NCBI GenBank assembly: GCA_004297215.1
Contig: SCUM01000001.1
Span: forward strand, 742,716-806,715
Direction: 5' to 3'
Origin: Patescibacteria group bacterium
Lineage (GTDB): Bacteria; Patescibacteriota; Patescibacteriia; UBA9934; GWF2-40-263
DNA length: 64,000 nucleotides
A program made the position numbers and the translations under genes. Under the pieces are notes generated by a model, which had not been told where the DNA came from, did no database searches, and saw nothing but the letters and a program-made list of their open reading frames with translations. Positions 5,438-59,663 of the stretch are shown piece after piece; within the stretch, counting starts at the first letter, position 1; every line of letters starts with the position of its first letter.

Positions 5438-5513
5438 GGGCCGATAGCTCAGCTGGTAGAGCGCTGCATTCGCATTGCAGAGGTCTGGGGTTCGATTCCC
5501 CATCGGTCCACCA
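5438..5513 (+). tRNA. tRNA-Ala (anticodon CGC)
   Basis: 76 nt. Acceptor GGGCCGA/TCGGTCC with G3:U70, D-arm TAGCTCAGCTGGTAGAGC, anticodon loop TTCGCAT, T-loop GGTTCGATTCC, CCA encoded. Confidence 0.9.
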
Positions 5514-5545: not shown

Positions 5546-5726
5546 GCTCAGCCCCGACGCTACGCCATCGAGTCTCAAGGCGTAGGTCGGGGGTCCGACC
5601 GAAGCGTCGGACCTGGTAGAGCGCTGCATTCGCATTGCAGCCCAGACGCTTTCTGATGAAAGGTCGGGGTCCCGGACCCATCAGGCGTCGGGAAGGTCTG
5701 GGGTTCGATTCCCCACAGGTCCACCA
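5546..5726 (+). pseudogene. tRNA-Ala-like gene copy disrupted by two palindromic insertions (pseudo-tRNA or unusual tRNA)
   Basis: The 3' two-thirds matches tRNA-Ala(CGC) exactly (CTGCATTCGCATTGCAG ... GGTCTGGGGTTCGATTCCCCACAGGTCCACCA). A 52-nt hairpin (CCCAGACGC..GCGTCGGG) sits in the variable-loop position. The D-arm region GCTCAG / CTGGTAGAGC is split by a second CCCGACGCT..AGCGTCGG palindrome. No intact 5' acceptor strand. Confidence 0.5.
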
Positions 5727-23100: not shown

Positions 23101-26100
23101 GCCAACAACAACGTGGGCATCGCGGATTCCACGCCGGACAACCTGCTCGACATCCTCTCCGGTTCCGACGCCGCCCTCGCGCTTACCTCGACGGGCACGG
23201 ACACGGACCCGCTCATCAAGTTCGAGCTTGCCGACGGCACGCCTACCTTCACCTTGGGCGTGGACGATTCGGATTCGGACAAGTTCAAGATCTCCACCAC
23301 GGCGCTTGGCACGAGCGACCGCCTGGTCATCGACTCGTCCGGCTTCGTGGGCATTGGCACCTCGACGCCGGACGCGGCGTTCGACGTGGAAGCGGCCGTG
23401 GACGCCAACGGGGCGAATGTCCTGTTCGAAGCCAACGACTCGGGGGTGTCCGGCAGCTACTTCCGCATCGCCGACGGCACCGAGGCGGACACGCATTTCG
23501 TCCCCTACATCATGACGAAGGGGATCGGCACCGGGGCGGCGGACCGCGCCGGGCTGATCATCGACGCGCAGCCGGGCGAGGACGGGAGCGACGACGTCGC
23601 GGTGATCGTCGACGCGCATCTTTCCGGCGCGGCGCTCACGAGCGCGCACCTGTTCGAGGTGCGAAACGACGCGACGCCGCTGCTGCGCGTCGCAGCCAAC
23701 GGCAACCTCGTCTCGTTCGGTTCCGTCGGCATCGGGACGGGAACGCCCGGGGCCAGCCTCGACGTGGATCCCGCCAACGTCGTGGGCGGCGGCACCTCCG
23801 AGCAACCCTCGATCCTCGGATCGAACCAGGTGATTGCGCTTGCCGACGGGACGACCCGGGCGAATCAGCGCCAGTTCAAGTTCCTCGCGCCGACCCTGAA
23901 CGGGGTCGCGGGCGGAGGCACCGAAACGGTCACGGACGCGGCCACCTTCTACGTCTCCGACGCCCCGTCGGGTTCGGACATCACCTTCACCAACGGCCCG
24001 TACGCCCTGTGGGTGGATGCCGGGACGGCGCGGTTCGACGGGGACGCCATCGTGGGCGGCAGCACGTCGATCACGGAGACCCTCGCGAACGCCGGATTCT
24101 CGATTGGCGGCGACGACCTGTTCGTGGCCGGCACCGCGGGCGTGGAAGGGAACGTGTACACGGACGGGTCGTTCATCGCGGGCGCCACCCTCACGCTCGC
24201 GGATTCCGGCATCACCGAGAGCGGCGCGTTCACCTTCACCTCCCAGCTCGCCGCCGGCGGCACCACCTCTTCCGCCTACAACCTGGTCACGAGCAACGAC
24301 CTCGGTTCCGCCGACGAAGTGCTCCAGATCGGTGACTCGACAGGCACCTTCGCGACCGTCCTTGGGAACGGCAACGTCGGGATTGGAGAAGTCGACCCGG
24401 CCACGATCCTACACGTTTCCGGCACCCAGGCTCGCGTCACCATCGAGGACACGGGAAAGGGGACGGGGCCGGCCGTGCTTGGGCACGATTCCGGCATGTT
24501 GTTTCTCGAGAACAACGGCATACGCGTCATCTCCATCAACGACTCCGGCGGTTCCACGGGATTCGGCGACCAGAGCCCGAACGCCATCGTGGAAGTCGAC
24601 CAGGCCGGCGGCAGCGTCGACCCATTCCTCATCTCGAGCAACAACGGCGTGGACGGCGACCTGTTCAACGTGCAGGACGGAGGCGCCGTGGGCGTGGGCG
24701 ACGTTTCTCCGGACGCCAGGTTCGACATTGACGACGGCGCCGCGACCGGGACGATCGTGGGGGTGCTCTCGAACGCCGGGACGCAGGCCGGATCCTTGAT
24801 CGGCCTTTCGCTCGACTTCGACTCGTCGCTCGCCGGCGCCGCCAACCTGGACTTCACCGGCGTGAGGCTCCTCACCCCCAATCTCACGCAATCCACCGCG
24901 GATACCACCGACTACCTCGGGTACGACCTGGCGGCTGGCGCCATCACCCAGGACACGCTTGCCGGGACGATCAATTGGACCGGCGCGCGCATCGCCATGC
25001 CCGTGCAGGTGCAGACCACCGGCATCGTGAACACGAGCGGGCTCACGGTCACGGACAACGGGTCGAGCAACAGCGGGGTGAAGCGCGGATTGTTCGTGGA
25101 TTTCAGCGGCATCCAAAGCGGCGGGACCCTGGTGGGCCTTGACGTGGACAGCATCACAACCGGCGGCGGCAACGGGCTTGGCGTGCGCATCGGGTCCGGG
25201 TTCGACACGGATCTCCAGTTTGTGAACGCCGCCGCCGTCATCCGCGTTCCCAACGCGGGCACGCTCGACTTCCAGGACGCCTCGGAGAACTCCCTCATGC
25301 TGCTTACGGACGCGGGAAGCACGAGCACCCTCGACGTGAACGGCTCCATCCGCGCCGGGACGCCTGGCACGGACGGCCAGTTCCGCCTCTACTCCGAGCA
25401 GGGAGCCACGGACTACGAGGTCGCGTTCAACCCGCATGCGGCCATGACGCAGGCCACCGCCTACACCCTTCCGGCGGACGACGGCGGATCCGGCCAATTG
25501 CTCACCACCGACGGGTCCGGCGCGCTCTCTTGGTCAACCGCCGCTTCGGGCGACATCACGGCCGTGGGCTCCATGACCTCCGGCGACGCCTTCGCGGACT
25601 CCACGGCCGACGACGACTGGCTCGGCCTTGGCGCCAGCGCCGGCCGCATCGAGTTCGATGACCAGGCCACGGACGAGGTGAACATCCTCGGCGCGAACGT
25701 CGGCATTGGCACCTCGACGCCTGGTTCAACCATCGACGCCACGTCCCCGGCGACCCTCACCACGGCCTATCAGCTCCTGGCCGATTCGGTGACGGACGGG
25801 ACGGGATTGGAACTGTCCCTCGACAGCCTGAACGAGGGTTACGGCCTGCTCGTAACGAGCACGGCAGATGCGGATTACGGGTCTGACCTGGCCGGATTCC
25901 AGCAGTTCGCCGTGTCCACGGGTACCGCGACCATGGACGGGAACGTGGAGAGGATCGTTCAGAACCTGGACTCCAGTACCACGGGGACCCTCACGGTGAG
26001 CGGCAACGCGATGCGGATCCAGCGCGCGGTGAACGCCAACAGCGGCACGACCCTGGACGCGACGGGCGCGGTCATGCGTATCAGCGACCAGACCGGCGCC

Positions 26101-27555
26101 GGGACAGGGACCCTCAACTCGAGCTCGGACGTGCTTTCCCTCACCCAATTCATCACGACGAACAGCGGCGACGCGTTGGGCATCCTGCACCAGGGCACAG
26201 GCATCGGGGCCCACATCACCATGAGCACCGTGAGCGCCCCCGCATCCGGTTCCGTGGGCAACCAGGCCTTGGTGCTCGACACCAATGAGACGCAGAGCAA
26301 CGACGACATGTTCATCATCCGCTCCGACGCCGACGGCACTCCGGACACGGAGTTCATCTTCGAGGCCGACGGGGATGCCGTGGCCGACGGCAGCTTCACC
26401 GGCGGCGGGGCCGACTACGCCGAGTACTACCGTGTTTCCGACCAAGGGATTGAGGCCGGCGACGTCGTCTGCCTCGACCAGGAGAACCCTGGCGACGTCA
26501 CTCGCTGCTCCGCTTCCGCCCCTGTCCCCACCGGCGTCATCTCCACCAAGCCCGGGTTCCTCGCCAATGGCCAGGGCAGGGACGTGGCGGCCGACCCCTC
26601 GTTCAAGCCGGTCGGCCTGATGGGTCAGGTCCCGACGAAGGTCAGCCTTGAGAACGGCGACATCGCGGTCGGCGACCCCGTCGTCGCTTCCGTGACCGCT
26701 CCGGGACGCGCCATGAAGGCCGTCGAGGCCGGCCAGATCGTCGGCTACGCGCTCGAGCCCCATACCAGCCAGTCTCCTGACGCGGAGATCCTCGTATACG
26801 TGCGCCCTGGATACCACGCGGCACTCTCCTCCCAGACCGCCGCCGGCACCGACAACCGGGCTTCGGAGATCCCGTCCTCGGGCCTCACCGCGCTCAACAT
26901 GAGCGGCAACATCTACATGGCGGGCAACGGAATCCTCGACGTTGGCGCGATTGAGGGCATCGGCGCGCGCTGGTCGGTCGACGCCGATGGGAAATTCGCA
27001 ACCCAGGCTTCCTACGACGTGGTCATCAAGAGCTACCAGGACGAGGACGTGACCGTGCACGCGGTGCTCGGGCGCGAACACAAGGTGACGCTCGACGGCA
27101 CAGCGACCCTCGAGAACGGGGTCGCGACGGTCGCGTTCGAGACGGTCGACCCGCTCTTCAACGACATCACGTCGACGACGGCCGACATCCGCGTGTCCGT
27201 GACCCCCAACGGCCCCGCCTACCTCTATGTCGTCTCGAAGGACCACAACGGGTTCACGGTGCAGCAGTTGAACGGCAGCGACTCGGGCATCACCTTCGAC
27301 TGGTTCGTGAGCGCGTATCGGAAGGACTATGAGCCGGAGGTGATTGAGGTTGTTGAGGTGACGGAGGAGATGCCGGTCGAGGAATCGGTCCCGACCGAAG
27401 GACCCGTGCCGGAACCGGTCGTCGAAGAACCTGCACCTATCCAGGAGACGGCTCCCGTGACCGACCCGGCACCGACCGAGCCTGCTTCGACGGATTCGCC
27501 ACTGGTTGAAGAACCGGCGCCAGAACCGCCCCCGACAGATGAAACCCCGACATAG
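20107..27555 (+). CDS. Giant surface protein 2 (tandem paralog of giant 1)
   Basis: 2482 aa. The first ~135 aa after the TM and a ~1.3-kb internal block are near-identical to giant 1 at DNA level (20237-20610 vs 11617-11990; 21385-22650 vs 12560-13830). One C-terminal conserved module (26400-26780), conserved C-terminal domain, PE-rich tail. Confidence 0.85.
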   Translation: MDLLERKDHPLCRLMQGVVAVALVITGGIASTWVMFEALSVFAVSPPNIISYQGRLLNANGVPDASASRDFQFRLYDSLAAGTCLWSNDDSSCASDADLAVTLTDGLFSENLGDTGAGYAAIPDSVFADDASVFLEVEVEGEVLSPRKQIGAAAYAMNADTLDGINSTSFFVQNGNSLGAAAVLGTNDGFGLELETGGTTRLTLGTSGAITVPLAGSFVFDDDATDGLDDDMTLEVAASLAYPGFDVTVMHPSFGLLELVDPVNSAPGIALHGDLPAYAINVDNPGGAGTAFFPMSFFREGASSSPFFSMQTYPDDDGWAIYGPSVADPGVIQILEAGTVNAGAYAARSDASAIPILCASTRVEETAANLVQESCFMADGSLDLGLALAGTDTTVAQGGIERSSGSDETFAFANQGAGVLSLTADGTVDVSGHAAIGADALIDDGGLLYPGSTFSNTLNVSERSTDASVDYVEGTTNYLLYDPSADASGIWAIALDSEAATEATNAEDVGTLSAGYFNATHNGTGDITSWMSGIEAYVYTTATGGSSISNIGGYFSVTAQDPRATGTEDNYGVWSAVHRTGATGGTINTYGMYVDNDGVDAAGAGTSTLYGLFLESMTGADTNYSIYSAGGQSYHAGNFGIGATTPDADLDIEAAEDTERVRLTDSSNADSVGLYVGDGTAGLDGTLSAQAGSLFLDEDGKLWVNMDGATNWDQVATTAGGGTDLDGVYDNDSDKKMAVDNASGLEFESTTAGNVFVDLQSSGDFVIQSVGTAFATFNDSGNVSFENSLTVGSSSADVVLFNADVDSHFLPDDDDTYDLGADAQRWRDLYLGAATLHVGSLIGDEGTLSYDSTPNDFNFANGGATRMTIQSDGDVGIGDSMTSPTAQLHIKQTAAEDALRVDDEAAGTTYFVVDDGGNVGIGVTSGPSSTLHVVGDTRIGATDYVTMAQDGGGFYVEQIGSSDALRPIRLQSRNAATQYSQFFVDPVNGFQFLINATGANNNVGIADSTPDNLLDILSGSDAALALTSTGTDTDPLIKFELADGTPTFTLGVDDSDSDKFKISTTALGTSDRLVIDSSGFVGIGTSTPDAAFDVEAAVDANGANVLFEANDSGVSGSYFRIADGTEADTHFVPYIMTKGIGTGAADRAGLIIDAQPGEDGSDDVAVIVDAHLSGAALTSAHLFEVRNDATPLLRVAANGNLVSFGSVGIGTGTPGASLDVDPANVVGGGTSEQPSILGSNQVIALADGTTRANQRQFKFLAPTLNGVAGGGTETVTDAATFYVSDAPSGSDITFTNGPYALWVDAGTARFDGDAIVGGSTSITETLANAGFSIGGDDLFVAGTAGVEGNVYTDGSFIAGATLTLADSGITESGAFTFTSQLAAGGTTSSAYNLVTSNDLGSADEVLQIGDSTGTFATVLGNGNVGIGEVDPATILHVSGTQARVTIEDTGKGTGPAVLGHDSGMLFLENNGIRVISINDSGGSTGFGDQSPNAIVEVDQAGGSVDPFLISSNNGVDGDLFNVQDGGAVGVGDVSPDARFDIDDGAATGTIVGVLSNAGTQAGSLIGLSLDFDSSLAGAANLDFTGVRLLTPNLTQSTADTTDYLGYDLAAGAITQDTLAGTINWTGARIAMPVQVQTTGIVNTSGLTVTDNGSSNSGVKRGLFVDFSGIQSGGTLVGLDVDSITTGGGNGLGVRIGSGFDTDLQFVNAAAVIRVPNAGTLDFQDASENSLMLLTDAGSTSTLDVNGSIRAGTPGTDGQFRLYSEQGATDYEVAFNPHAAMTQATAYTLPADDGGSGQLLTTDGSGALSWSTAASGDITAVGSMTSGDAFADSTADDDWLGLGASAGRIEFDDQATDEVNILGANVGIGTSTPGSTIDATSPATLTTAYQLLADSVTDGTGLELSLDSLNEGYGLLVTSTADADYGSDLAGFQQFAVSTGTATMDGNVERIVQNLDSSTTGTLTVSGNAMRIQRAVNANSGTTLDATGAVMRISDQTGAGTGTLNSSSDVLSLTQFITTNSGDALGILHQGTGIGAHITMSTVSAPASGSVGNQALVLDTNETQSNDDMFIIRSDADGTPDTEFIFEADGDAVADGSFTGGGADYAEYYRVSDQGIEAGDVVCLDQENPGDVTRCSASAPVPTGVISTKPGFLANGQGRDVAADPSFKPVGLMGQVPTKVSLENGDIAVGDPVVASVTAPGRAMKAVEAGQIVGYALEPHTSQSPDAEILVYVRPGYHAALSSQTAAGTDNRASEIPSSGLTALNMSGNIYMAGNGILDVGAIEGIGARWSVDADGKFATQASYDVVIKSYQDEDVTVHAVLGREHKVTLDGTATLENGVATVAFETVDPLFNDITSTTADIRVSVTPNGPAYLYVVSKDHNGFTVQQLNGSDSGITFDWFVSAYRKDYEPEVIEVVEVTEEMPVEESVPTEGPVPEPVVEEPAPIQETAPVTDPAPTEPASTDSPLVEEPAPEPPPTDETPT

Positions 27556-30001: not shown

Positions 30002-30077
30002 TGGTGGACCCTAACGGGATCGAACCGTTGACCTCTTCCATGCCATGGAAGCGCTCTACCAGCTGAGCTAAGGGCCC
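30002..30077 (-). tRNA. tRNA-Ala (anticodon GGC)
   Basis: Reverse complement GGGCCCTTAGCTCAGCTGGTAGAGCGCTTCCATGGCATGGAAGAGGTCAACGGTTCGATCCCGTTAGGGTCCACCA. G3:U70, anticodon loop ATGGCAT, CCA encoded. Confidence 0.9.
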
Positions 30078-30089
30078 GAACGTGCGGAA

Positions 30090-30118
30090 AGGATAGCGTC
30101 GAATTTGAACCCGGTCAA
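30090..30118 (-). promoter_or_regulatory. Promoter for tRNA-Ala(GGC), minus strand
   Basis: On the minus strand TTGACC, 17-nt spacer, TATCCT, ending about 10 nt before the tRNA 5' end. Adjacent triple GGTTGAACC/GGTTCGACC repeat and hairpin at 30124-30165. Confidence 0.5.
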
Positions 30119-30203
30119 GGGCTTGGGAGGTTCGACCTGGGAGGTTGAACCTCCCAGGTTGAACCTCGACACGCGACCGTTTCTCCGCTAGCATGCGCCC
30201 ATT

Positions 30204-33428: not shown

Positions 33429-33517
33429 AGTGCGTAGTGCGTAGTTGGTAGTACGTAGGAAAGAAAATCTACGCACTACGAACTACGTACTACGAACTAC
33501 GTACTACGCACTACGCA
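33429..33517. repeat. Hairpin built from ACTACGY heptamer arrays (left flank of the four-helix-bundle gene)
   Basis: AGTGCGTAGTGCGTAGTTGGTAGTACGTAGG..loop..CTACGCACTACGAACTACGTACTACGAACTACGTACTACGCACTACGCA. Confidence 0.8.
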
Positions 33518-33532
33518 AACATATGAACAACG

Positions 33533-33888
33533 AAAAAACGGGTTCGTACCAAGACTTGATCGTGTGGCAGAAGGCCATGGATCTTGTGGTCGGTGTTTAT
33601 GAGATTACAAAAGATTTTCCTACAGATGAGCGGTATGGGATCGTGAGTCAGATGAGACGTTCCGCCGTGTCTATCCCGTCGAACATTGCGGAGGGATATA
33701 GGCGAAAAAGCGAGGTGGATTTTCAAAGATTCCTCCGGATCGCCTATGGCTCAGCGTCTGAACTCGAAACACAGCTCCTCATTGCGCAACGGTTACGATA
33801 CGGGCCAGCAAGCTTTGCCCGAACGGATGCTCTCCTGGAAGAAATTCTGAAAATGTTAAACAAGATGACGGAAGGGAAGAGTTCGTAG
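33533..33888 (+). CDS. Four-helix-bundle protein (23S rRNA intervening-sequence protein family)
   Basis: MNNEKTGSYQDLIVWQKAMDLVVGVYEITKDFPTDERYGIVSQMRRSAVSIPSNIAEGYRRKS..FLRIAYGSASELETQLLIAQRL matches the TIGR02436-type family. The annotated upstream start lies inside the hairpin repeat. Confidence 0.8.
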
Positions 33889-36341: not shown

Positions 36342-39300
36342 GTGAGTTCCCACGTCCGCCCCGTGTCACGAGCGTCTCGTGGCATGAGGCGGGTGGATTC
36401 CACCCGAACTTTGCACGCCCCCATGCTTGTCGTGCAGCCAGACAAATCCCTCATCCGAAGAGTAAGCGCGAGCGAGCCGTTCGCGCTCGTTGTGGTTTTC
36501 CTCATGATGATTTCCGGGTTCAGCGTGTGGATGCTGCTGTCGCGCGCGCCCGGGGCGGTCGCGACGCTCGACACGCCGATGCTCATCACCTATCAGGGGA
36601 AGCTCACCAACGCGAGCCGCATCACGGTGCCGGACTCGGCGCTCAACATGAAGTTCGCGATCTACACCTCGAGCTCCGGCGCCTCCGGCTGCGTGTGGAG
36701 CGCGGGCGACGACCCGGGCGACGGCGCGGACACTACCTTCTCGCAATCAAGCGACTGTCCGAGCCATGTCCCGTCGACCGCGATTTCCGTGACGCCCAGC
36801 GAAGGGGTGGTCACGGTGATCCTCGGCGCCTCCCCGCAAAACGCCATCCCCGATGCGCTGTTCGACGACAACTCCGCCCTGTACCTCGGCGTCACCGTGG
36901 GGGCTGACAGCGAAATGACTCCGAGGATCCGCCTCACCGCCACGCCCTACGCCTTCCAGGCCGGCGACGCGGACCTGCTCGACGGCCTCGATTCCACGGC
37001 GTTCGCCACCACGAGCACCGCGTTCGTGAACAACGGCAATTCCTTCGCCGCCGCCGGGGTGATCGGCACCAACGACGCGAACTCGCTCTCGTTTGAGACG
37101 AACAACGTTACCTATCTCACCATCGCCTCCGGCGGCGGCTTCACGCTTCCCGTGGACACCGACTGGACGCTCACGGGCGGCACGAACGGGTTGAGCCTCG
37201 ACGGCACCACCTTCTCCGTGGACGCCGCCAACAACCGCATCGGCATCGGCACCGCGGCCCCGAGCCAGACCCTCACGGTGGTCGGCACCGGCGACGTGTC
37301 CGGCCACGTGGCCATCGGCGACGACGCCGCGATCAACGACGCGTCGCTCCTCTATGGCGCATCGACCATCACGAACGTCCTTACCGTCTCCGAGGAGATG
37401 ACGGACGGCGCCTCGGACTACGTGGACGGCATCACCAACCACATCCTGTACAACCCGTCCACCGACGCCTCAACCACGTGGGTCGACGGCATGGACACGG
37501 TCGTGGAGACGGCCGCGGCAAACGCGCAGGACATCGACGTGATCGATGCCGGATATTTCGGGACCACCCATAACGGCACGGGCGACATCGTGGGCTGGCT
37601 CAACGGCGTCTCGGGGGTCGTCAGCACGACGGCGACGAGCGGGAGTTCTATTTCGAACAACGCCGGGTATTTCGCGGTCACCGCGATCGACCCCCGCGCC
37701 ACCGGTACCGAGGACAACTACGGCTTGTGGTCGGCCGTGAGCCGCACCGGCGCCACGGGCGGCACCATCAACACCTACGGCGTGTACGTGCAAAGCAACG
37801 GCATGGACGCTGCCGGCGCCGGTACCTCCACCCTCTACGGCCTCTATATAGAGAGCATGACAGGGGCCGACACCAACTACGCCATCTACTCCGCCGGCGG
37901 CCAGAGCTACCACGCGGGGAACTTCGGGATCGGCGACGCCTCTCCCGCCTCCCTCCTCACCGTGGGCTCGGGCGACCTGTTCCAGGTGACCTCCGCGGGG
38001 AGGATCATCACGACCGTGACCCCCACGGCCGACTCGGGGACCACCAACAACGCGGCGTTCGTGATGCTCACCACCCCGGCGGACACCACCGGCACGAACG
38101 TGCACAACGCCCTGCGCGTGGACGGGAACGTGGGCAACGCCACCGGAGGCACCAACACCGTCAATCTCCTCGAGTTCGACGCTCTGACCGGCGACGCCCA
38201 AGTGACCCTGCGCGGCATCGACATCGGCGCGCTCACCGGCACCGCCGCCACGGAGGACGCCATCCTGGTCGGAAGCGGTTGGGACTGCACGTTCAAGGTG
38301 GGCTCCACCTGCGTGATCGATGGCTCCGGCACGCTCGGTTCCAGCGGCAACGCCTTCGTGAACGGGGGCAACTCCTTCGGCGCCAGCGCCATCCTCGGGA
38401 CGAACGACGCCAACTCCCTTTCGTTTGAGACCAACAACACCACCTACCTCACCATCGCCTCCGGCGGAGGATTCACCCTCCCCGTGGACACCGACTGGAC
38501 GCTCACGGGCGGGGAGAACGGGTTCTCCATCGACGGCACCACCTTCTCGGTGGATGGCTCGGCCAACCGCGTGGGCATCGGCGACGCCACCCCCGACGCG
38601 CTGCTCGACGTGGGCGGGGACGCGTTCATCGACAACGACCTCGTGGTGGGTGCCGCGACCTCGACCACCGAGACGCTCGCGAACGCCGGGTTCAGCTTGA
38701 GCAACGACGACCTATTCGTCTCTGACTCCATCGGCGCCGAGGGCAACGTCTACACCGACGGCTCCTTCATCGCGGGTGCCACCCTCACGCTCGCCGACTC
38801 CGGCATCACCGAGTCGGGTGCCTTCACCTTCACCTCGCAGCTCGCCGCGGGCGGCACTACTTCTTCCGCCTTCAACCTTGTCTCGAGCAACGACCTGGGC
38901 GCATCCGACGAGGTGCTCCAGATCGGCGACTCGGCCGCCACCTTCATGACCGTGCTCGGGAACGGCAGCGTGGGGATCGGGACGGTGAGTCCGTCAGTGA
39001 TTTTAGATATCGCGAAAGTGGGTTCGGGAAGTACCGCGGCCCAAGTGACCATTTCCGGGTATGCGAATGACGCTTCCAGCGGGGCATACATGAACTGGCA
39101 AAAATCACGCGGAACGTCCGTCGGTTCTTTGGTCACGACCGATAGCGGAGATTATCTCGGGGTGATGGGATGGGCGGGCGTTACTTCTTCCAACACGAGC
39201 AGTTATGGCGCGAGGATCCTCGTGCAGCAAGATGCCGCGGCATCAGCGACGCAAGTACCCGGCGCCTTCATCATCAGGACGAGCGATGCCAGCGCCGAGT

Positions 39301-42300
39301 CTGAAAGATTGCGCATCACGAGTTCCGGCAACGTCGGCATCGGCGATACCACCCCCGCCTCGCTGTTCACCGTGGGCGACGGAGATGATTTCCAGGTATC
39401 CTCGACCGGTAACCTCACCTCTCCGGCCGACACCACATGGACGATTGGTGGCGGCGTGAACGGCCTCAACTTCGATTCGGACACCCTTTCGATCGACGCT
39501 ACGAACAATTTCGTGGGAATCGGCACGAGCACCCCGGACTATCTCCTCCAGGCCGAGGCCAGCTCCGCGTCCGTTCAAGCCGCCGTGGTCACGAACACGA
39601 ACACGGCCGGCGCAGGGGTGGTCATGGCGCAGGCGGGAAACGTGACGGCGCGCTATGCGGCGTACGGGACGACGGCGGCGATTAACAACTTCGCGTCCGG
39701 CACGGCGGCCTTCTTCGGAAGCGGCGCCGTCACCTCCGTCCAGATGGTCACGCCGGACGTGGCCGCCCCGTTGGCGTTCGGATACAACGATTTCGTCTCC
39801 ACGAGCCGCGAATTCCTCCGCCTGACGGACGGGACGGCCGGCGCCGTGTTCAACGAGGACAGCCTCGACCGGGATTTCCGCGCCGAGACCGACGGGAACG
39901 TCAACGGCATCTTCCTCGACGCTTCCGCCGAGACCATCGACCTGGTGGGCGGCTCGGGCTCCACGGGCTGCTCCATCAGCTCGGCGGGCGCCCTGGTGTG
40001 CACCGCAGGGGTAGGAGGATGGACCGACGGGGGGACCGACGTCACCCTCACCACCTCCACCGACAACGTGGGCATCGGCGGTGCGTCGCTCGGCAAGCTC
40101 TCCGTGGACGGGGATACCGACGAGATCCAGCTCCTGGTGCAGGGAAACTCCAGCCAGACGGCCAACTACATGACGGTGGAGACGAGCGCCGGCACCGACC
40201 TGTTCCAGATTGACACTTCCGGGAACGTCATCCTCACCAACGACCTTGGCGTGGGCGCCGCCGCCTCCTCCGAGACGCTCGCGAACACGGGTTTCTCGCC
40301 GAATGGCGACGACCTGTTCGTGGCGGACTCGATCGGCGCGGAAGGCAACGTCTACACCGACGGCTCCTTCATCGCCGGCGCCACCCTCACGCTCGCGGAC
40401 TCCGGCATCACCGAATCCGGCGCCTTCATTTTCACCTCCCAGCTCGCTTCCGGCGGCACCACCTCCTCCGCCTTCAACCTCGTCTCGAGCAATGACCTGG
40501 GTGCCGCCGACGAGCTCCTGCAGATCGGGGACTCGGCCGGGACGTTCATGACGTTCCTTGGGAACGGCAACGTCGGGATCGGGACCGTAAACCCCTCGGC
40601 CCCGCTCACGGTGGTCGGGGGAGCGGACGTCAATCTCGCCGCGGACGACAACTTCGTCATCGACGGGAGCACCAACCAGCGCACCATCACGCTCGGAGCC
40701 ATGCGCTTCTTGCACACGCCGGCCATCCAGGGGACGCGCGCCATCAACCTGGTGGTGGACGCCAACAACCAGTCCGACACCTCCGGCATCGTGGTGGATT
40801 ACGCCGCCACCAACTTCGACAGCGACCAGAACGGCACGGCGCTCAAGCTCTCGGTGGATTCCACGAGCGCGACCGGCGGGGAAGTGCGGGCGATCGACGT
40901 CACGAAGACGGCCGGCGGCACCCTCGACGTGTACGCGGTGCAAGCCGGGGTGGGCGTGACCCCCCTGCGCCAGGTCTCGGGCACGTTCGGGAACGTGGAC
41001 ACGGCGCTCATCGAGGCCGGCGGATTCACGGCCGTCACGTCGAGCTTCAACTCCACCGGCACCGACGTGCAGATGTTCGTGGCCAACGGCGACCGCGTGT
41101 ACGTGGGCGCGGACACCACCTTCGGCGCCGTCTCCTTCGTGCTCGCCACCGTCGCCTCCGGCGCCGGAGTGAAGCCAACCTTCGAGTTTTCCACGGGCGC
41201 CGGATGGACGAGCTTCGGTCCCAACGACGGGACCAACGGGATGCGCACCAACGGGAGCATCAGTTGGGACGCCGCCGACCTCGCGACCTGGGCCACCCAG
41301 TCCGTGAACGCCACCACCAAGTACTGGATCCGCATCACGCGCACGCAGGCCGCGCTTACCACGCCGCCCACCGAGGACATCGTGCAATACGCGGCCGCGA
41401 CCAATTACACCTGGGACGTGAACGGCGACCTCGCGATCCGCGACCTCGCGGTCAACGGCGGCGACCTCACCACGAGCACTTCCACCTTCAACCTGGCCGC
41501 GTCGGTCACGACGCTCGCGATGGCCGGCGGCTCCGGCTCCACGGGCTGCACGATTGACTCCTCGGGGAACCTGGCGTGTTCCGGCACGGTGTCAGGGAGC
41601 GGAGCCGTCGGGTTCGTGAACGGGGGCAACTCCTTCGGCGCCAGCGCCATCCTCGGGACGAACGACGCGAACTCGCTCTCGTTTGAGACCAATAACACCA
41701 CCTACCTCACCATCGCCTCCGGCGGCGGGTTCACGCTTCCCGTGGACACCGACTGGACCCTCACGGGCGGCACGAACGGGTTGAGCTTCGACGGCACCAC
41801 CTTCTCCGTGGACGCCACCAACAACCGCATCGGCATCGGCACGGCGGCGCCGACGACGGAGCTTGATATTGTCGGTTCGGGGACCGGCTACAACTTCAAC
41901 GCGATCCGCAGCACGAACGGCAACATCGGCTATTTCTCCCAGAACGACACGGCCGGCACCGCCGCGACATCGCGCATGTGGTTGATTGCTGACGGGGTTT
42001 CGGGCAACAGCGTGCAAGGGAATCTCTGGGCGCTCTCCTCCTCCTATACGGATGCCTTCTGGGGAAGCTACGCGGCGGGCAAGGTCTTGCTTGCGGCTGC
42101 TGGTGAGGCGAGTCGGAAGGACCTGTTGATCGCGGCGGTCGGTTCCGGGACTGGCGGCAAGATCGCATTCCATGTCGGTGGATTGAACGAGGCGCCGTTA
42201 GCCGCCAACGAACGGGCGCAAATCGGCGCGACTGAGTTCGTCGTCAACGACAGCTCCAATAATTACGACTTCCGCGTGGAGGGCGACACCAACGCCAACC

Positions 42301-45300
42301 TCCTGTTCCTCGACGCATCCGCCGACCGCGTTGGCATCGGAGATGCCACCCCCGACCATTTCGTGGACATCGAGGCTGGTTCGCTCGCGAGCGCCGTGAA
42401 CGCGCTTTCCGTGACCGGCACGCTCTCTTCGACGGCCGCGGCCCAGACGGGCGTCTCGGTAGACATCACGGGAGCCGGTAGCGACTCGAATCTCCATGCC
42501 GGCTTGGCAGTCAATCTGGGAGCCGGATATACGGGGGCCGGAGCCTCGGCGGCGATGTATTACACGAACTATTCCGCGGGTACGGCAACCACGCCTGTCG
42601 GGAACGGGAACGGGAATTACGGCGTGTCAGGTTTCGCCTTGGGAACGACGACCGGGACGAACGTCAGCGTGCTCGGTTCCGCAGGCTACGGCGACGTCAA
42701 CTACGGCGTCATGGGGAAGGCCCAGGTCGCCAAGACGAGCGCGAAGAACGTCGCGGTCGCCGGCGTGGCGAATGCCGCCGGCGGTTCCGGCATGACGCTC
42801 CTCGGCGGGTATTTCGGCATCAATTCGACCGCCGGAGACCCGACGCTCGCAAGCGCCGCCCTCATCGCGGACAACGGCGACGTCTCCGCCCCCATCTTCC
42901 TCGCCCGCGACAACGGCACGGTCGTGCTCACGGTCGCCGATGGCGGCTCCGTCGGCATCGGCGACAGCACGCCTGCCTCATTGTTCACCGTGGGCGACGG
43001 GGACGACTTCCAGGTGGGCTCCGACGGCGATCTCGACAGCATCAAGAGCGTCGCGTATTCCTGGCCCTCGGCAAACGCCTCGGGCGTGCTCACCAACAAC
43101 GGCTCCGGCGTCCTTTCCTGGTCCTCGGCCGGCTCCGGCGACATCACGGCGGTCGGCTCCATGACCTCGGGCGACGCCTTTGCCGACGCCACGGCCGACG
43201 ACGACTGGCTGGGCCTCGGCGCCGCGGCCGGCCGCATCGAGTTCGATGACGTGACGAACGACGAGGTGAACGTGCTCGACGCGTACCTCGGCGTCGGCAC
43301 GTCCACTCCGGCCGGGATCTTCCACGTGTCGGCGGCCGACCCGCGCACGCGCGTCACGCACACCTCCACCACCGGGTACAGCGTGTTCGACCTCTACGAG
43401 AACGCCACGGCCCAAGGCTCCCTCACCACCTACGGCTCCGCGGTGGGCGGGGCGATGGCGAACGATTTCGTGATCTCGGGCCGCGGCACCTCGGACCTCG
43501 TGTTCGCGAGCGCCGACGATACCGAGCGCATGCGCATCGCCGCCGGCGGCAACGTGGGCGTGGGGGACGCCACTCCGGACGGGTTCTTCTCGGTGGGCAC
43601 CACTTCCCAGCTCCAGGTCACGAGCGCCGGCAACCTTTCCACTTCCGGCACCGTCACCTCCACGAGTTCCTCGGCCTCCGCGCTCGTGGTCGACACCACC
43701 ACGCTCGTGGTGGATGCGAGCGCCAACCGCGTGGGCGTGGGTACCGCCTCGCCCGCCGCCGACCTGCACGTGTCGGCGGCCGATACGCGCATGCGCGTCA
43801 CCCACACGTCGACCACCGGGTACGGACAGCTCGATTTCTACGAGAGCGGCACCGTCCAGGGCGACATCGTGGCGTATGGCTCCGGCGTGGGCGGGGCGCT
43901 TGAGAACGATTTCGTGATCTCGAGCCGCGGCACCTCGGACCTGGTCCTTGCGAGCAGCGCGGACACCGAGCGCCTGCGCATCACCGCCGCCGGCGCGTTC
44001 TCGCTCCCCGCGGACACCGACTGGACCCTCACGGGCGGGGTGAACGGCCTATCCTTCGACGGCACCACCTTCTCGGTGGACGCCACCAACAACCGCATCG
44101 GCATCGGCGACGCCAGCCCGTCCGCGCTGCTCACCGTGGGCGACGGCGACAAGTTCAAGGTCAACGCCGAGGGCGACATCACCTCCGCGTTCACGACCCT
44201 CGACGGTTCGACGACGGCGAACGGCGCGGGTTCCAACTCGACCACGCTCATCCTTACGAGCGCCACGAACTTCGATGTCGGGAATTACGTCCAGGTGGCC
44301 GCGACCGCCTGCGCCGCCAATCCTTGTTTTGCCAAGATCACGGCCATCGTGACCAATACGTTGACCGTCAGCCCTGCCATCTCCTGGAGCGACCTCGACG
44401 TCGTGACCGAGGTCCACGTCCCCGAGATCGGCGGCCTCGACCTCACCCAGGCGCTCGCCAACCGCTACGGCCGCGGCTACTTCATCGACGGCATCGTGGC
44501 CGGCAACGGCTCCACCTACATCACCGACGGCTCGATCGAGAGCGTCGGCGCGCTTCGCATCAACGCCTCCGGCAACCAGGCCGTGACCTTCGGCACCGGC
44601 ACGGTCACGGTCAACGGCCCGCTCGTGACCGCGGCCGGCAACGACCTCAACGTGGACTCCGGCACCCTGTTTGTCGACTCTACCAACAACCGCGTGGGCA
44701 TCGGCACGGCCACCCCCGGCTACCTGCTCGACGTTGCCGGCGCCATGCGCGTGGGCGTGGCCGGCACCGACGGCCAGATCCGCCTGTACTCCGAGCAGGG
44801 GGCCACGGATTACGAGGTGGTGATCAACCCCAACGCCGCCATGACCCAGAACGTCACCTACACCCTCCCGGCCGACGACGGCACTTCAAGCCAGGTGCTC
44901 ACCACCGACGGCTCCGGCGGCTTGAGCTGGGCCACCGCCGGCGGCTCGGGTGCCAACGTCACACTCTCGAACCTCACCACCGTTGCCCTCAACGCCGACC
45001 TGCTTCCGTCCGCGTCGCCGTCCACCTCCTCGAGCAGCAGGACGACCACGGTGGCGGAAACGACCACCTCCACGGGGACGTATTCGGACATGGCGGTTCC
45101 CGCGGATGGGTTGCCGGTCTTAAGTCATACGGACGCATCCGGTTACCTGCGGGTCAGCAAGTGCAGCGACGCCAACTGCTCTTCCGGTTCGATTACCAAC
45201 ACTATCGTGGATTCCAGTTCAACGTTCCAATACACTTCCGTCGCCATTTCCGCCGACGGGTATCCGGTGATCAGCTATTACGACAGCACGAACCTGGATC

Positions 45301-56780: not shown

Positions 56781-57710
56781 TCAGAGGGCATCGTCGATGA
56801 CCGCGAGCAGGCGGCGGATCGAGGCCGGCGATACGTCGAGCGGGATGCGGATGAAGTTGCCGGGACAGGAGAGATGCGGGGCTCCATTGATGATGACACC
56901 GTCGTGTCCCAAAAGGGCCATCTCCAGGTTTTCCCGTTCTCCCGTGTGGAGCACGCCGAAGTTGGTTCGGGACGAGCGCCAATCGAGATCCTTCTTGCCA
57001 ACGGCCCACGCCGCGATCGCGCGGTCGTTCGACTGGATCCGTTCGAGGAGTCTGGCGGGAGTCTTCTTGTCTTCGAGCAGGTGTTGGATCTTCCGAAGCG
57101 AACTGATGCCAGGCGTATGCGTGAACAGATGCAGGTCGAGCGGAAAGCATGGCATGACGACATATCCTACACGGTCCACGACTGCCCCGTGCGTCTTCGA
57201 GAACGACCGTACGACGGCCACGGTCTTGCCCGCTCCGGCCTGTCCGAGCCACCTCACCCCCAAGCGCTTCTCGGCGATGAGCGTCTGGTCAATGATGCAA
57301 AGCTGGTCCGCGTCGAGGGAAGCGAATAATCGTTTCAGGTCTCGGGATGGATAGATCGTCCCGAGCGGGTTGTTCGGCAGCGACAGGTAAAGCGCCTGCG
57401 GTTTACATTCCCCAACGAACCGCAGGAAGTCATCAAGCGAGTTCGCGGCGGACTGCGGAGGTCGGATGGTCCTGTGGCCGTGCAGAGCCGCTATCACGTG
57501 GATGTCGTAGTATTCGTACGGCATCGCGGCGATCATGGAGCCTTTCGGCAGTGCTCCGAACAGGAGGTCGATCGCACCGGTGGCCCCGCAGGTCACGGTA
57601 ATCTGGTCGGCCCGGCACCCTTCGTGCCGCGCAATGGCCCTCCGACTTGCCTTCAGGCGTTCCATATACGGGCCGTACCCGTCGCCAAAACGGAGATCGA
57701 CAGTCTTCAT
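56781..57710 (-). CDS. PLP-dependent aminotransferase, class I/II (HisC/CobD-like)
   Basis: 309 aa. PLP-lysine motif SFSKTHG, NNPLGT, fold-type I pattern. Good SD (GGGAGGA) 6 nt upstream of the ATG at 57710. Confidence 0.7.
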   Translation of the reverse strand: MKTVDLRFGDGYGPYMERLKASRRAIARHEGCRADQITVTCGATGAIDLLFGALPKGSMIAAMPYEYYDIHVIAALHGHRTIRPPQSAANSLDDFLRFVGECKPQALYLSLPNNPLGTIYPSRDLKRLFASLDADQLCIIDQTLIAEKRLGVRWLGQAGAGKTVAVVRSFSKTHGAVVDRVGYVVMPCFPLDLHLFTHTPGISSLRKIQHLLEDKKTPARLLERIQSNDRAIAAWAVGKKDLDWRSSRTNFGVLHTGERENLEMALLGHDGVIINGAPHLSCPGNFIRIPLDVSPASIRRLLAVIDDAL

Positions 57711-57836
57711 GCGTCCTCCCGTTACTTGGATTGCATTGGATTGTGAAAGAAGGACGCACCGTAACGGAAAAAGCGCATTCTGTCAATCTCCTATGGGTGG
57801 CACAGAAACGAACAAAGATTCATCCACTTCCGTTCA

Positions 57837-57865
57837 TTGACAGAAGGACGAAATCATGATTGAAT
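57837..57865 (+). promoter_or_regulatory. Candidate promoter with extended -10 in a gene-free interval
   Basis: TTGACA, 17-nt spacer, TGATTGAAT. It would start a plus-strand transcript that meets a terminator 45-90 nt downstream. Confidence 0.35.
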
Positions 57866-57906
57866 GGCAACAGCTGGATGAGGCAACGTGCTCAATCTCC
57901 CGGTGT

Positions 57907-57958
57907 CACGAATAAGACCCACGACCTTCAAAAAGTCGACGGGTCTTATTCGTTTTTT
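57907..57958 (+). terminator. Rho-independent terminator (plus strand)
   Basis: ACGAATAAGACCC...GGGTCTTATTCGTTTTTT. Confidence 0.7.
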
Positions 57959-57959
57959 G

Positions 57960-58150
57960 GCCCCGGGCCGTGTGAGTGAGGAGGGCCTATGGAGGCGACA
58001 CCTCAGTGTCGTCCTGAGGAGTCTCAACGACCAAGGATCTCGAGGTCCTTCGCTCTGCTCAGGATGACACTGACGTGTCGGTTCGACTCCCGCGAGGTCC
58101 ACCAACCTTCGCTCTGCGGAGTTTCGGTTGGCGTAGCCGCGGCCCGGGAC
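57960..58150 (+). ncRNA. Candidate structured small RNA with tRNA-like 3' end (GGTTCGACTCC...GAGGTCCACCA); identity unresolved
   Basis: 190-nt interval between two terminators with no plausible ORF. The ends pair (GCCCCGGGCCG / CGGCCCGGGAC). A 15-bp internal stem (CAGTGTCGTCCTGAG / CTCAGGATGACACTG). T-loop-like GGTTCGACTCC followed by GGTCCACCA. Confidence 0.3.
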
Positions 58151-58152
58151 CA

Positions 58153-58180
58153 AGAAAACCGACCTCTGAGGGTCGGTTTT
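58153..58180. terminator. Bidirectional hairpin terminator
   Basis: AAAACCGACC-TCTGAG-GGTCGGTTTTCG, with an A-run 5' and a T-run 3'. Confidence 0.7.
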
Positions 58181-58208
58181 CGCTTCTGGCCAACACCGGG
58201 CGTTGGAG

Positions 58209-59663
58209 TTAGAACGCATCGTTGAAGACGCGCGCAAGCGCCTCGATCTCCTGCCGCGTTTCGGTGCCGGCACTGATGCGCAAGAACGGCGGAGTCCCTT
58301 CCACGGCGTGGAGAGCGGTGAGATAGACGCGCGTCACGTCGAAGCCGAAGCTGGTGCCGGCCGTGAGGTCGAGTCCTTCTTGCTTGGCTCCGGCGATGGC
58401 GCGGGAGAGGAACCGGCGGGCGAGCTTCACGGTCGATCCCAGGTCGCGGAACGTGACCGTAAGGTTTCCGCCGCAAAATGGCAGGCCGTTCGTCCAAGCG
58501 CGTCCTGGGTAGGAGGGGAGTCCTGGGTAGACGACGGTCCGCGCGGAAGATGGCGCGTCCTCGAGCGCTCGGGCGAGGATGAGCGCGTTTCGTTCGATGC
58601 GGGCGAGCCGCTTGAGGAGTCGCGGTCGGTCAGGTCGGGGGAGCGCATGGACAGACGCGTCGGGGAGCACGGTGCCGCCGTGCATGCGGGCCGACCACAA
58701 TCTCCTCGTGCTGCCGATCGGTCCCCACACGATGCCGCCCGTGACCCGGTCGAACCCGTGCTCGTGGTACTTGTTCAGGCTCTCTAGGACGAGCAGTTTC
58801 GCGTGCCCGAGCACGGGAAACACCCTGAGCGGTTGGCATGCGGGGCCCAGCGCGCTGTTGTCGAGCACGAGACAGGCGTCTTTGGGCAGGGCGCGGCAGA
58901 GCCCGGGTACGAGCGTTTTGAGGTCTGGGAGCGGCAGGTCTGGCGCGTTGCACAGCGTGTCGAGAAACACGGCATGCGGCTGGATCGCCTTGGCGCGCGC
59001 GACGACTCCGACGGCATCCATCTCGTCCGCTTCCACGATGCGGCCAGGGAACAGCCCCTTAAGCAGCGTGCGGTTCTCGAAATAGGATCGCCGCCCAACG
59101 AGGATCGGGCCGCACGCGAGCGTGCCGCGCATCATGAGCGCCATCACCACGGTGGAAAGCGCCGCCATCCCGCTTACGGTGGCATACGCGGTTACGGGGA
59201 CGAGCGCCGAGCCGTCCACGTAGGCCTTCACGAACGCGCGCTCGTACGCGGCGGCGTCCATGTGGTGGTCGCGCTTGTAATCGTTGACCGTGCCGCGGAT
59301 GCGTCCCTCCTGCAGTCCTGCCTGTGAGCGCCGCGCGTGCATGAACGACGGCGACTGCCAGTCGGGCGCGGCTCGCGCGCCGGCGAACCGGCCATAGAGC
59401 GAGCGAAGGCGGTCGTGCGCGGTCGCCTTGAGTTCGCGCAGGCGCGGGATGTCGTCTTGCGTCCACCGCGGACGGCCCGCAAGCGCCGGCTCGAGTTCGC
59501 TCGACAGGAGTCCGCATGCCTGGGCAAGCGCCGCGCCCTCCATGCGCCCATCGAACTCCTTGAGACGGTCCCTCAGGTCCGACATGAGCGAGAAACGCTC
59601 CTCGAGGTCGGCCTGGAGGTCATTGAGCGTCTCGTCCGCCTGTGCTTCCCCGCGCGTGGTCAT
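58209..59663 (-). CDS. PLP-dependent enzyme of the Cys/Met-metabolism (cystathionine gamma-synthase/beta-lyase-like) family with N-terminal extension
   Basis: YATVSGMAALSTVVMALMMRG..LVGRRSYFENRTLL, DNSALGPACQ, LESLNKYHEHGFDRVTGG (PLP-lysine context). About 140 aa of extra N-terminal sequence. Confidence 0.6.
   Translation of the reverse strand: MTTRGEAQADETLNDLQADLEERFSLMSDLRDRLKEFDGRMEGAALAQACGLLSSELEPALAGRPRWTQDDIPRLRELKATAHDRLRSLYGRFAGARAAPDWQSPSFMHARRSQAGLQEGRIRGTVNDYKRDHHMDAAAYERAFVKAYVDGSALVPVTAYATVSGMAALSTVVMALMMRGTLACGPILVGRRSYFENRTLLKGLFPGRIVEADEMDAVGVVARAKAIQPHAVFLDTLCNAPDLPLPDLKTLVPGLCRALPKDACLVLDNSALGPACQPLRVFPVLGHAKLLVLESLNKYHEHGFDRVTGGIVWGPIGSTRRLWSARMHGGTVLPDASVHALPRPDRPRLLKRLARIERNALILARALEDAPSSARTVVYPGLPSYPGRAWTNGLPFCGGNLTVTFRDLGSTVKLARRFLSRAIAGAKQEGLDLTAGTSFGFDVTRVYLTALHAVEGTPPFLRISAGTETRQEIEALARVFNDAF

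Follow-up and report, generated by a model that had tools for sequence, protein, structure and literature searches.

A putative tRNA- or tmRNA-derived relic between two terminators in a Patescibacteria genome

We analysed a gene-free spacer in a 64-kb stretch of DNA (the window; contig SCUM01000001.1 of assembly GCA_004297215.1, positions 742,716–806,715) from the metagenome-assembled genome of a Patescibacteria group bacterium (candidate phyla radiation), and within it a 122-nt unit at 57983–58104 that we label E2; a second element of the window, at 5609–5726, is labelled E1. Our favoured reading, held tentatively and with a little less than even confidence, is that E2 is a degenerate alanine-type element derived from a tRNA or transfer-messenger RNA (tmRNA) gene and joined to an inverted repeat. 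It is probably a relic and would at most be a read-through RNA. Its last 25 nt would derive from a tRNA-Ala or tmRNA gene, of which they keep the T-loop, the 3' half of the T-stem and the 3' acceptor strand with U70, A73 and CCA, and the rest of its body would be a 22-bp inverted-repeat hairpin whose base consumes a T-stem strand. With that strand consumed, E2 would favour a rod-like fold and could work neither as a tRNA nor as a tmRNA. The reading draws on the following: the 3' 25 nt alone are statistically tRNA-like, RNA family models reject E2, its T-arm is costly to form, no relative was found in the collections searched, the unit stands behind a terminator (terminator 1) without the TGTTTCAYGTGRAACAAAATGG box found before two tRNA genes of the window, and it marks a break in synteny. 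A precedent exists in the same genome in E1, a clearer and better-preserved tRNA-Ala derivative beside tRNA-Ala(CGC). E2 may accordingly have arisen by partial duplication or rearrangement of a tRNA or tmRNA gene, left as a relic in a terminator-bounded pocket at a point of broken gene order.

Anatomy of E2 and tests of family membership

Read as RNA, E2 runs from GGGCCUA through U-GGAGGCGAC and a long arm to the T-arm-like GUCGG-UUCGACU-CCCGC and closes with GAGGUCC-ACCA. This order and its spacing are those of a tmRNA tRNA-like domain (TLD) carrying one long arm. The unit and its parts are:

57983–58104, plus strand: E2, GGGCCUA...GAGGUCC-ACCA, with 6/7 acceptor pairs, G3.U70, A73, an encoded CCA, a long arm and a T-loop motif
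57996–58080, plus strand: long hairpin of 22 bp with one C.C mismatch (57996–58018 / 58058–58080) and internal loops
58033–58050, plus strand: apical hairpin of the long arm, 7 bp with a UCGA loop
58080–58104, plus strand: tRNA/tmRNA-type 3' end of 25 nt, composed of GGTTCGACTCC (T-loop), CGC, GAGGTCC and ACCA
58047–58058 and 58106–58117, plus strand: 12-nt direct repeat CCTTCGCTCTGC, one copy in the hairpin and one 2 nt past the CCA; at 5338 its first 10 nt recur behind the CCA of tRNA-Arg

The 3' end at 58080–58104 is the only statistically secure tRNA-like part of E2. The motif GGTTCGACTCC-N8-CCACCA is expected ~9e-5 times per window, and its other two matches in the window are tRNA-Ala(CGC) and E1; the 9-mer GGTCCACCA at 58096–58104 is common to both tRNA-Ala genes, E1 and E2. 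The initial annotation of the interval had described a T-loop-like and acceptor-like 3' end with a U70-compatible position, and this end is present and non-random. The 5' acceptor strand GGGCCUA (6/7 pairs, G3.U70) is uninformative: 93% of shuffled upstream sequences hold an equally good site, which places the strand at chance level, and the real sequence upstream of the 3' end offers seven sites with at least 6/7 pairs (G.U allowed). An internal stem first reported as 15 bp is real and longer than that, with inverted-repeat arms of 37 nt that include the 22-bp helix. The 130-nt stretch 57984–58113, nearly coincident with E2, has a fold stability of z = -5.3. We also compared the E2 interior with a decayed tRNA 5' end (GGTCCTTCGCTCTGCT against GGCCCTTAGCTCAGCT, 13/16 positions) and dropped this candidate (p = 0.018 in one of 18 comparisons, not significant). 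The 10-mer CCTTCGCTCT has exactly three copies in the window, where ~0.1 are expected, at 5338–5347 (1 nt past the tRNA-Arg CCA), 58047–58056 (inside the E2 hairpin) and 58106–58115 (2 nt past the E2 CCA).

The family models did not recognise E2. A 561-nt scan gave no Rfam tRNA or tmRNA match, either at the gathering score or at E ≤ 10. Scanned alone against the tmRNA model RF00023, E2 scored 5.9 bits (E = 0.82) against a gathering score of 47, in an end-to-end alignment at exactly 57983–58104, and its best weak Rfam matches, to microRNA precursors, point to a long hairpin of generic type. With a covariance model that we derived from five compact Patescibacteria tmRNAs confirmed by Rfam (model R1), the score was 9.1 bits (E ~1.3), below the tRNAs of the window (17–23 bits) and E1 (22.9 bits). 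ARAGORN called nothing at E2 at default thresholds; at 80% thresholds with introns allowed it returned, at the E2 coordinates, a 'tRNA-Leu(CAG)' interrupted by a 46-nt intron, in which the T-stem is mismatched and the D-loop lacks GG. No tRNA cloverleaf was thus recognised in E2 by RF00005 or by default ARAGORN.

The T-arm separates E2 from working RNAs of similar layout. We folded each RNA with the acceptor stem and T-arm imposed and took the energy difference from the unconstrained minimum; E2 pays +12.8 kcal/mol, while eleven compact tmRNA-like RNAs and E1 pay 0–3.1. The latter all have 7/7 acceptor and 5/5 T-stem pairs, as opposed to 6/7 (A7.G66) and 4/5 (central C.C) in E2. The cost is high because GUCGG, the 5' strand of the T-stem, belongs to the base of the 22-bp helix (CGACAC/GUGUCG). 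E2 has the loop of a T-arm (5-bp stem, 7-nt UUCRAnU loop) on a mismatched stem. At the place of the D-loop analogue GGnUUCGAC it has GGAGGCGAC, whose CGAC forms Watson-Crick pairs with GUCG, and the GGA(C/A) segment before the T-stem is absent from it. Its acceptor carries U70, A73 and CCA and reads GGGCC/GGUCC, not GGGG/CUCC as in all tmRNAs collected. Stop codons in E2 are confined to three UGA, and the sole internally terminating frame (...SLNDQGSRGPSLCSG*) is unlike any tag; tag-less tmRNAs exist, so the missing tag frame alone does not exclude E2 from tmRNA. The topology is that of a compact tmRNA, with tRNA-like ends around a single arm and 122 nt within a range of ~105–140 nt. The architecture pattern is expected 0.00 times in window shuffles, a value for a pattern that was derived from E2 itself. 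On the family models, ARAGORN, the T-arm energy and the chance control, E2 is not a member of the tRNA or tmRNA families. This upholds, by Rfam, ARAGORN and frame inspection, the earlier statement that the interval has no tag-peptide frame and no full tRNA fold; the Rfam scan proposed at that time, in which a known family would have replaced the small-RNA proposal, assigned none. Two further assignments were rejected. As a permuted two-piece tmRNA, E2 would have only ~50 nt between its CCA and terminator 2, and RF04321 gave no match; for Y-RNA, retron, CRISPR, T-box, 6S and signal recognition particle RNA readings there was no Rfam match and no partner gene, and position or shape was wrong.

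E2 is enclosed by two terminators and by an inverted repeat that overlaps them:

57908–57958, plus strand: terminator 1, with 13-bp perfect arms (57908–57920 / 57941–57953), a 4-bp inner stem and then T6
57953–57970, plus strand: left arm of the closing inverted repeat, TTTTTTGGCCCCGGGCCG, which pairs with 58140–58157 in the fold of the whole unit
58102–58131, plus strand: trailer hairpin CCAACC...GGTTGG with inner CUC-UGCG-GAG, overlapping the CCA (fold of 57955–58190)
58140–58157, plus strand: right arm of the closing inverted repeat, CGGCCCGGGACCAAGAAA, which pairs with 57953–57970
58154–58185, both strands: terminator 2, with 11-bp perfect arms (58154–58164 / 58171–58181), a 6-nt loop and A-rich and T-rich flanks

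Both terminators consist of a G+C-rich hairpin and a U-run, as expected of intrinsic terminators, and a simple terminator scan misses them only through its loop and tail rules. Terminator 2 has TTTTC tails on both strands and, judged by its sequence, looks bidirectional, so that it would also close the minus-strand gene for a pyridoxal phosphate (PLP) enzyme that ends at 58209. The borders agree with those first annotated: the strong terminator at 57907–57958 was found again as a 13-bp perfect stem with T6, the second terminator after the unit as an 11-bp perfect stem at 58154–58181, and the paired termini of the ~190-nt unit as the closing inverted repeat (18 nt, 89% complementary). E2 starts 25 nt past the U-run of terminator 1, and no promoter was found between the two.

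Relatives of E2 and of its locus

The closest sequences within the genome are the tRNA-Ala genes and E1:

5438–5513 and 30002–30077: tRNA-Ala genes
5609–5726, plus strand: E1, 118 nt, an unannotated derivative of tRNA-Ala(CGC), with upstream pieces from ~5545

The tRNA-Ala of the genome and E2 are identical in their first five bases (GGGCC) and last nine (GGUCCACCA), the T-loops of E2 and tRNA-Ala(CGC) are one base apart, and both carry the G3.U70/A73 alanine identity set; E2 differs in having no D-arm, no anticodon arm and no match to the tRNA model. Its ancestry is ambiguous, as GGGCC...GGUCCACCA fits the tRNA-Ala genes and GGUUCGACUCCCGC is the usual T-loop and stem of tmRNAs.

E1 ranked first in the model R1 search of the window and was called by neither ARAGORN nor Rfam. 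It shares blocks of 26 and 22 nt (48 nt in total) identically with the adjacent tRNA-Ala(CGC), namely the 3' strand of the D-stem with the anticodon arm, and the T-arm. Its variable region has gained a 52-nt hairpin, its D-arm has lost the 5' half, and loss of 11 nt from the tRNA accounts for its 5' end, GGGC[CGAUAGCUCAG]CUGGUAGAGC. The acceptor stem is again a perfect 7 bp through two substitutions in its 3' strand (UCG to CAG); with G3 changed to A3, A3-U70 replaces G3.U70 and the alanine identity pair is lost. Unlike E2, E1 folds into acceptor and T-arm at +0.6 kcal/mol. The two elements have in common their size (118 and 122 nt), an extra hairpin and a setting between two terminators. Homology of their interiors was considered and rejected as not significant (p = 0.36), the shared 9-mer GAGTCTCAA alone having p ~0.03. 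E1 shows that the genome generates, and may maintain, rearranged elements of tRNA-Ala type.

Two observations concern the upstream regions of the tRNA genes. The 22-nt box TGTTTCAYGTGRAACAAAATGG occurs at 5228–5249 and 5410–5431, ending 6–12 nt before the 5' ends of tRNA-Arg and tRNA-Ala(CGC), and is missing upstream of tRNA-Ala(GGC), E1 and E2; it may act as a tRNA promoter or in processing. Upstream of the tRNA-Ala(GGC) promoter, at 30118–30165 in the minus-strand reading, lie tandem T-loop-like repeats, GGTTCAACC / GGTCGAACC, one of which forms a perfect 9-bp hairpin (CCTGGGAGG-TTCAA-CCTCCCAGG).

We scanned the E2 architecture pattern over 185,579 species-representative genomes, Joint Genome Institute (JGI) metagenomes and IMG/VR. 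These exact-pattern scans found no relative of E2 with the same architecture in any of the three collections. The genomes gave 41 matches, mostly by chance: a tRNA-Ala or tRNA-Tyr gene with a fortuitous match upstream of it, or the 3' portion of a canonical tmRNA of ~350 nt. Five of the 41, all from Patescibacteria, are compact RNAs of 136–139 nt with an E2-type layout:

L011, 403–541: compact tmRNA
L048, 7142–7279: compact tmRNA
L040, 6918–7054: compact tmRNA
L044, 1986–2121: compact tmRNA
L022, 1335–1472: compact tmRNA

RF00023 was run on these five and accepts all of them at 58–75 bits (gathering 47), end to end and with ~260–280 central positions deleted. They share a covarying consensus structure and have no conserved neighbour that would open a route to the tmRNAs of relatives through smpB adjacency. 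The same pattern found further lineages of 107–136 nt in JGI metagenomes (L056/L071/L089/L095; L057/L062; L058/L103; L077; L094) and on two large IMG/VR contigs, putatively of phages (L107, L111). L040, L095 and L107 have no stop codon in their interior, so that a terminated tag is impossible. In a 2025 tmRNA database, 6,765 Patescibacteria genomes account for 5,252 standard tmRNAs, and no more than nine unique sequences are classed as 'standard, no CDS' (CDS, coding sequence); three 'Standard NoCDS' entries are from Patescibacteria, and other CDS-less tmRNAs come from mitochondria, two plastid genes, phage DS6A and Nasuia (PMC11915505).

The architecture of E2 therefore has a real, known counterpart in Patescibacteria. 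Compact or CDS-less tmRNAs (RF00023) and E2 agree in the order of their parts (5' acceptor strand, GG loop, one long arm, T-loop, 3' acceptor strand, ACCA), in G3.U70, A73, the lack of a credible tag frame and the phylum, and are similar in length (107–139 and 122 nt). They differ in model score (58–75 against 5.9 bits with RF00023; 9.1 bits for E2 with model R1) and in T-arm cost (0–3.1 against +12.8 kcal/mol), the T-stem of E2 being mismatched and in competition with the long helix. Where compact tmRNAs have GGGUUCGAC, E2 has GGAGGCGAC; their acceptor is GGGGG/CCUCC and that of E2 GGGCC/GGUCC; and internal motifs kept among the five (e.g. GGAAAAUGCCUAMAACAAARACC) are missing from E2. Mimics that consist of a TLD only (mycobacteriophage DS6A, cited in PMC11915505; L107 and L111 of IMG/VR) are likewise short, without an mRNA-like domain and outside a canonical ssrA locus; E2, in contrast, lies on a core chromosome without phage genes and does not share their well-formed T-arm. 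By functional analogy only, E2 may be likened to mascRNA (RF01684), in which an acceptor-like stem and a T-loop-like motif ending a longer transcript could recruit RNase P and CCA-related enzymes; that family is eukaryotic, and E2 has no Rfam match.

The spacer that holds E2 is 498 nt long and the fifth-largest gap in the window. Open reading frames (ORFs) overlapping it have a flat codon-position GC (third-position GC, GC3, of 0.42–0.61, against 0.76–0.94 in real genes), which confirms the interval as gene-free; protein-coding readings of the spacer were dropped for want of a coding signature. It is flanked by:

56781–57710, minus strand: class I/II aminotransferase gene, start at 57710
58209–59663, minus strand: PLP enzyme gene, end at 58209

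The spacer is not conserved in the homologous loci that we reached through the PLP gene (six relatives) and the aminotransferase gene, whose homologs are at most 52% and 35% identical. The PLP enzyme is 100% identical to an NCBI protein annotated 'Patescibacteria group bacterium' (locus tag EPO34_03960, on an 842,311-bp contig). The next-best homologs of the PLP enzyme are 47–52% identical and mostly from Candidatus Uhrbacteria, and the best homolog of the aminotransferase is 35% identical; a comparison over 4,338 bases with the one other assembly of the organism showed no difference. The organism also occurs in SRR8426588. Its lineage is isolated. We examined six loci of relatives. In five, another gene on the PLP strand overlaps the end of the PLP gene or begins a few bases past it; at the sixth, the P0003 locus, a gene on the opposite strand lies ~20 bases past the PLP gene. 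The P0006, P0010 and P0002 loci hold a full run of methyltransferase-like, NTP-transferase and solute-binding genes. In the genome of E2 the 498-nt spacer and an orphan aminotransferase stand directly past the PLP gene in place of this run, so that E2 marks a synteny break. In a related observation, an AstE-like/PLP pair followed by a conserved run of genes for a methyltransferase/spermine-synthase-like protein, an NTP-transferase and a solute-binding protein was seen at L004, L005, L113 and L114, four loci from three Uhrbacteria relatives, L004 and L005 being the same protein in two samples.

Readings of E2

Under the favoured reading of E2 as a relic, any RNA that contains it would come from read-through of terminator 1 from the TTGACA-17-TTGAAT promoter described below. 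Pairing of leader and trailer over 18 nt, together with the acceptor-like stem and its CCA, could then let processing of RNase III or RNase P type release a rod-like RNA of 122 nt, and the segment from the promoter to terminator 1 may by itself yield an RNA of ~85 nt.

Several points weigh against a relic. A spacer of 498 nt is long for a compact genome. Sequence that decays freely does not usually look like the E2 hairpin, which is nearly perfect (22 bp, one mismatch) and of unusual stability (z = -5.3 over 57984–58113). CCA, A73 and U70 are intact, and the 18-nt inverted repeat encloses E2 in the manner of stable-RNA precursors. The compensatory acceptor changes of E1 suggest that tRNA-derived elements can be under selection here, and compact, apparently tag-less tmRNAs exist in Patescibacteria. 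The absence of homologs is weak evidence, given scans that required exact pattern matches and a lineage that is poorly sampled. The candidate small RNA(s) of the initial annotation are retained in part: the anatomy, the non-random tRNA-like 3' end and the topology of a tmRNA TLD stand, whereas the T-arm does not form readily, no promoter of its own was found and the unit follows immediately on a strong terminator. That description makes a stronger case for a functional tRNA-like RNA than we find.

A functional small RNA of a new kind, a tRNA-scaffolded rod processed from a read-through precursor, is the best-placed alternative and in our judgement unlikely. RNase P would form its 5' end, RNase III would cut the leader-trailer stem or the 22-bp helix, and trimming would bring the 3' end back to the encoded CCA; the RNA would act away from the ribosome, e.g. 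as a decoy, a protein sponge or a dedicated alanyl acceptor. The set of G3.U70, A73 and CCA suffices for recognition of minihelices by alanyl-tRNA synthetase and is intact in E2, whose fold is very stable and which is framed by the closing inverted repeat and the flanking terminators. A long spacer has been retained in a compact genome, and E1 shows that tRNA-derived elements with re-paired acceptor stems exist there. E2 is, however, conserved in none of the searched collections, no promoter was found between terminator 1 and E2, its 5' acceptor strand is at chance level, and none of its neighbours, which are metabolic or housekeeping genes, is a candidate partner.

It is distinctly unlikely that E2, and perhaps E1, belong to a class, not described before, of tRNA-like RNAs of alanine type that are bracketed by terminators in a deep-branching lineage of Patescibacteria. 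The more specific form of this proposal, to which we give the same low weight, has E2 as a tag-less, further-reduced descendant of tmRNA or as a dedicated alanyl-acceptor rod RNA, released by RNase P and RNase III from a read-through precursor and switching between rod and tRNA-like forms. If E2 were expressed and charged, it would extend the series of tmRNA reduction past detection by models, from canonical through compact and tag-less to a degenerate tRNA-like domain, and would bear on the rescue of stalled ribosomes in candidate-phyla-radiation bacteria.

We regard as improbable that E2 is the tmRNA (ssrA) of this lineage, highly diverged, compact and tag-less, which would be charged with alanine and rescue ribosomes with SmpB and without tagging. 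Topology and size are those of the 107–139-nt compact RNAs, five of which score 58–75 bits in Rfam; several of these RNAs have no interior stop codon, and CDS-less tmRNAs are documented, three of them in Patescibacteria (PMC11915505). RF00023 moreover aligns end to end at exactly 57983–58104, and the T-loop with 3' T-stem, GGUUCGACUCCCGC, is typical of tmRNAs. Against this stand scores of 5.9 and 9.1 bits, far under threshold, and a T-arm disfavoured by 12.8 kcal/mol that all compact tmRNA-like RNAs tested form cheaply. E2 has GGAGGCGAC for GGnUUCGAC and lacks the GGA(A/C) segment before the T-stem, and its acceptor GGGCC/GGUCC is that of tRNA-Ala, not the GGGG/CUCC of every tmRNA collected. 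Standard tools find a tmRNA in ~78% of Patescibacteria assemblies (PMC11915505), so ssrA is probably located elsewhere in this genome of at least 842 kb; smpB was not found in the window.

There is a similarly slim chance that the 3' end of E2 is the remnant of an integrase attachment site, with a tRNA or tmRNA gene as target, or that a 205-nt unit with 18-nt terminal inverted repeats is an insertion resembling a miniature inverted-repeat transposable element (MITE). Integrases that target such genes typically leave a 3'-terminal gene fragment behind, and such a fragment is all that is securely tRNA-like in E2; PMC11915505 gives the tmRNA gene as a frequent integration site. CACCA-N-CCTTCGCTCT is found again at the 3' terminus of tRNA-Arg, 52.8 kb upstream, the 18-nt inverted repeats bracket the unit, and the unit lies at a synteny break. 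On the other hand, no integrase, transposase, phage gene or other mobile-element gene is present in the 64 kb, and the intervening 52 kb carry rpsF, ssb, epmA, efp and ychF. The window has no second copy of the unit, the phage collection gave no match, there is no target-site duplication, none of the tRNAs of the window ends in the 25-nt 3' sequence of E2, and the inverted repeat is in part the T-run and A-run of the two terminators. A second 205-nt copy, or a gene ending in GGTTCGACTCCCGCGAGGTCCACCA, elsewhere in the genome would point to a MITE or attachment-site origin.

Very improbable is the reading that the interval holds no RNA gene and consists of terminators and palindromes insulating the neighbouring units: terminator 2 would close the PLP gene, terminator 1 would close a short plus-strand transcript and Rfam sees a generic hairpin only, but a coincidental tRNA likeness is disfavoured by the expectation of ~9e-5 for the T-loop, N8 and CCACCA motif, whose other matches are tRNA-Ala(CGC) and E1, and by the 9-mer GGTCCACCA common to both tRNA-Ala genes.

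The main value of E2 as a putative relic is at present one of caution, as a relic can carry a convincing-looking "T-loop plus CCA" end and a closing stem; the thermodynamic and chance controls cleanly separate E2 from working compact tmRNAs. Perhaps more useful than E2 itself are two side observations, the seemingly tag-less tmRNA lineages of 107–139 nt, some on phage contigs, and the re-paired E1.

Promoter-like site and remaining features of the window

Upstream of E2, the spacer contains a promoter-like site and a possible short transcript that ends at terminator 1:

57837–57865, plus strand: promoter-like site, TTGACA at 57837–57842, 17 nt, TTGAAT at 57860–57865, with TG at 57857–57858 (extended -10)
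57778–57787 and 57836–57845, both strands: perfect 10-nt inverted repeat ATTGACAGAA, giving a TTGACA -35 box each way
57856–57915, plus strand: 19-codon ORF MIEWQQLDEATCSISRCHE, with AAGGA upstream and its stop codon within the 5' arm of terminator 1
57872–57958, plus strand: putative short transcript of ~85–90 nt, placed by the positions of the promoter and terminator 1

The site initially annotated as an extended -10 promoter at 57837–57865 is present in the sequence, though a strict sigma-70 scan does not call it, the -10 box having no A at position 2. The two copies of ATTGACAGAA are 48 nt apart, and the minus-strand reading, TTGACA (57786–57781)-17-TACGGT (57763–57758), faces the aminotransferase start at 57710; the repeat is a putative divergent promoter region. 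tRNA-Ala(GGC) is preceded by TTGACC-17-TATCCT. Given this promoter and the mirrored -35 box, the TTGACA-17 type is plausibly in use here, and with it a sigma-70-type promoter at 57837–57865. An RNA of ~85 nt from the promoter to terminator 1 is plausible on its sequence signals; 57872–57958 has no Rfam match, and its fold (z = -4.1) is mostly owed to the terminator hairpin. The ORF at 57856–57915 has a leader-peptide-like layout and could couple translation to read-through. It is probably not translated because its ATG lies within the promoter spacer, and it has no coding GC signature.

By gene content, the window is part of a core chromosome, and the genes next to the spacer are ordinary metabolic and housekeeping genes, with no partner gene nearby. 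Its annotated genes are:

First group of window genes: polA, holA, rmuC, tRNA-Arg, tRNA-Ala and three giant ORFs
Listed before the aminotransferase: ychF, rpsF, ssb, epmA and efp
Past the PLP enzyme: an AstE/AspA-like hydrolase, recA, a rodZ-like gene and ftsK

A 349-aa protein resembling class II aminoacyl-tRNA synthetases was considered as an RNA partner and rejected, as it is EpmA (TIGR00462, 297.6 bits against a cutoff of 286.9), encoded beside efp. The giant ORFs (11489–19933, 20107–27555 and 36342–49241; 2814, 2482 and 4299 aa) have a strong coding signature (GC3 0.86–0.88) and no significant Pfam domain. Avd proteins accompany diversity-generating retroelements. No reverse transcriptase was identified near the plus-strand ORF 33445–33888, which matches the '23S rRNA-intervening sequence protein' family (135 bits) and has a weak bAvd-like similarity.

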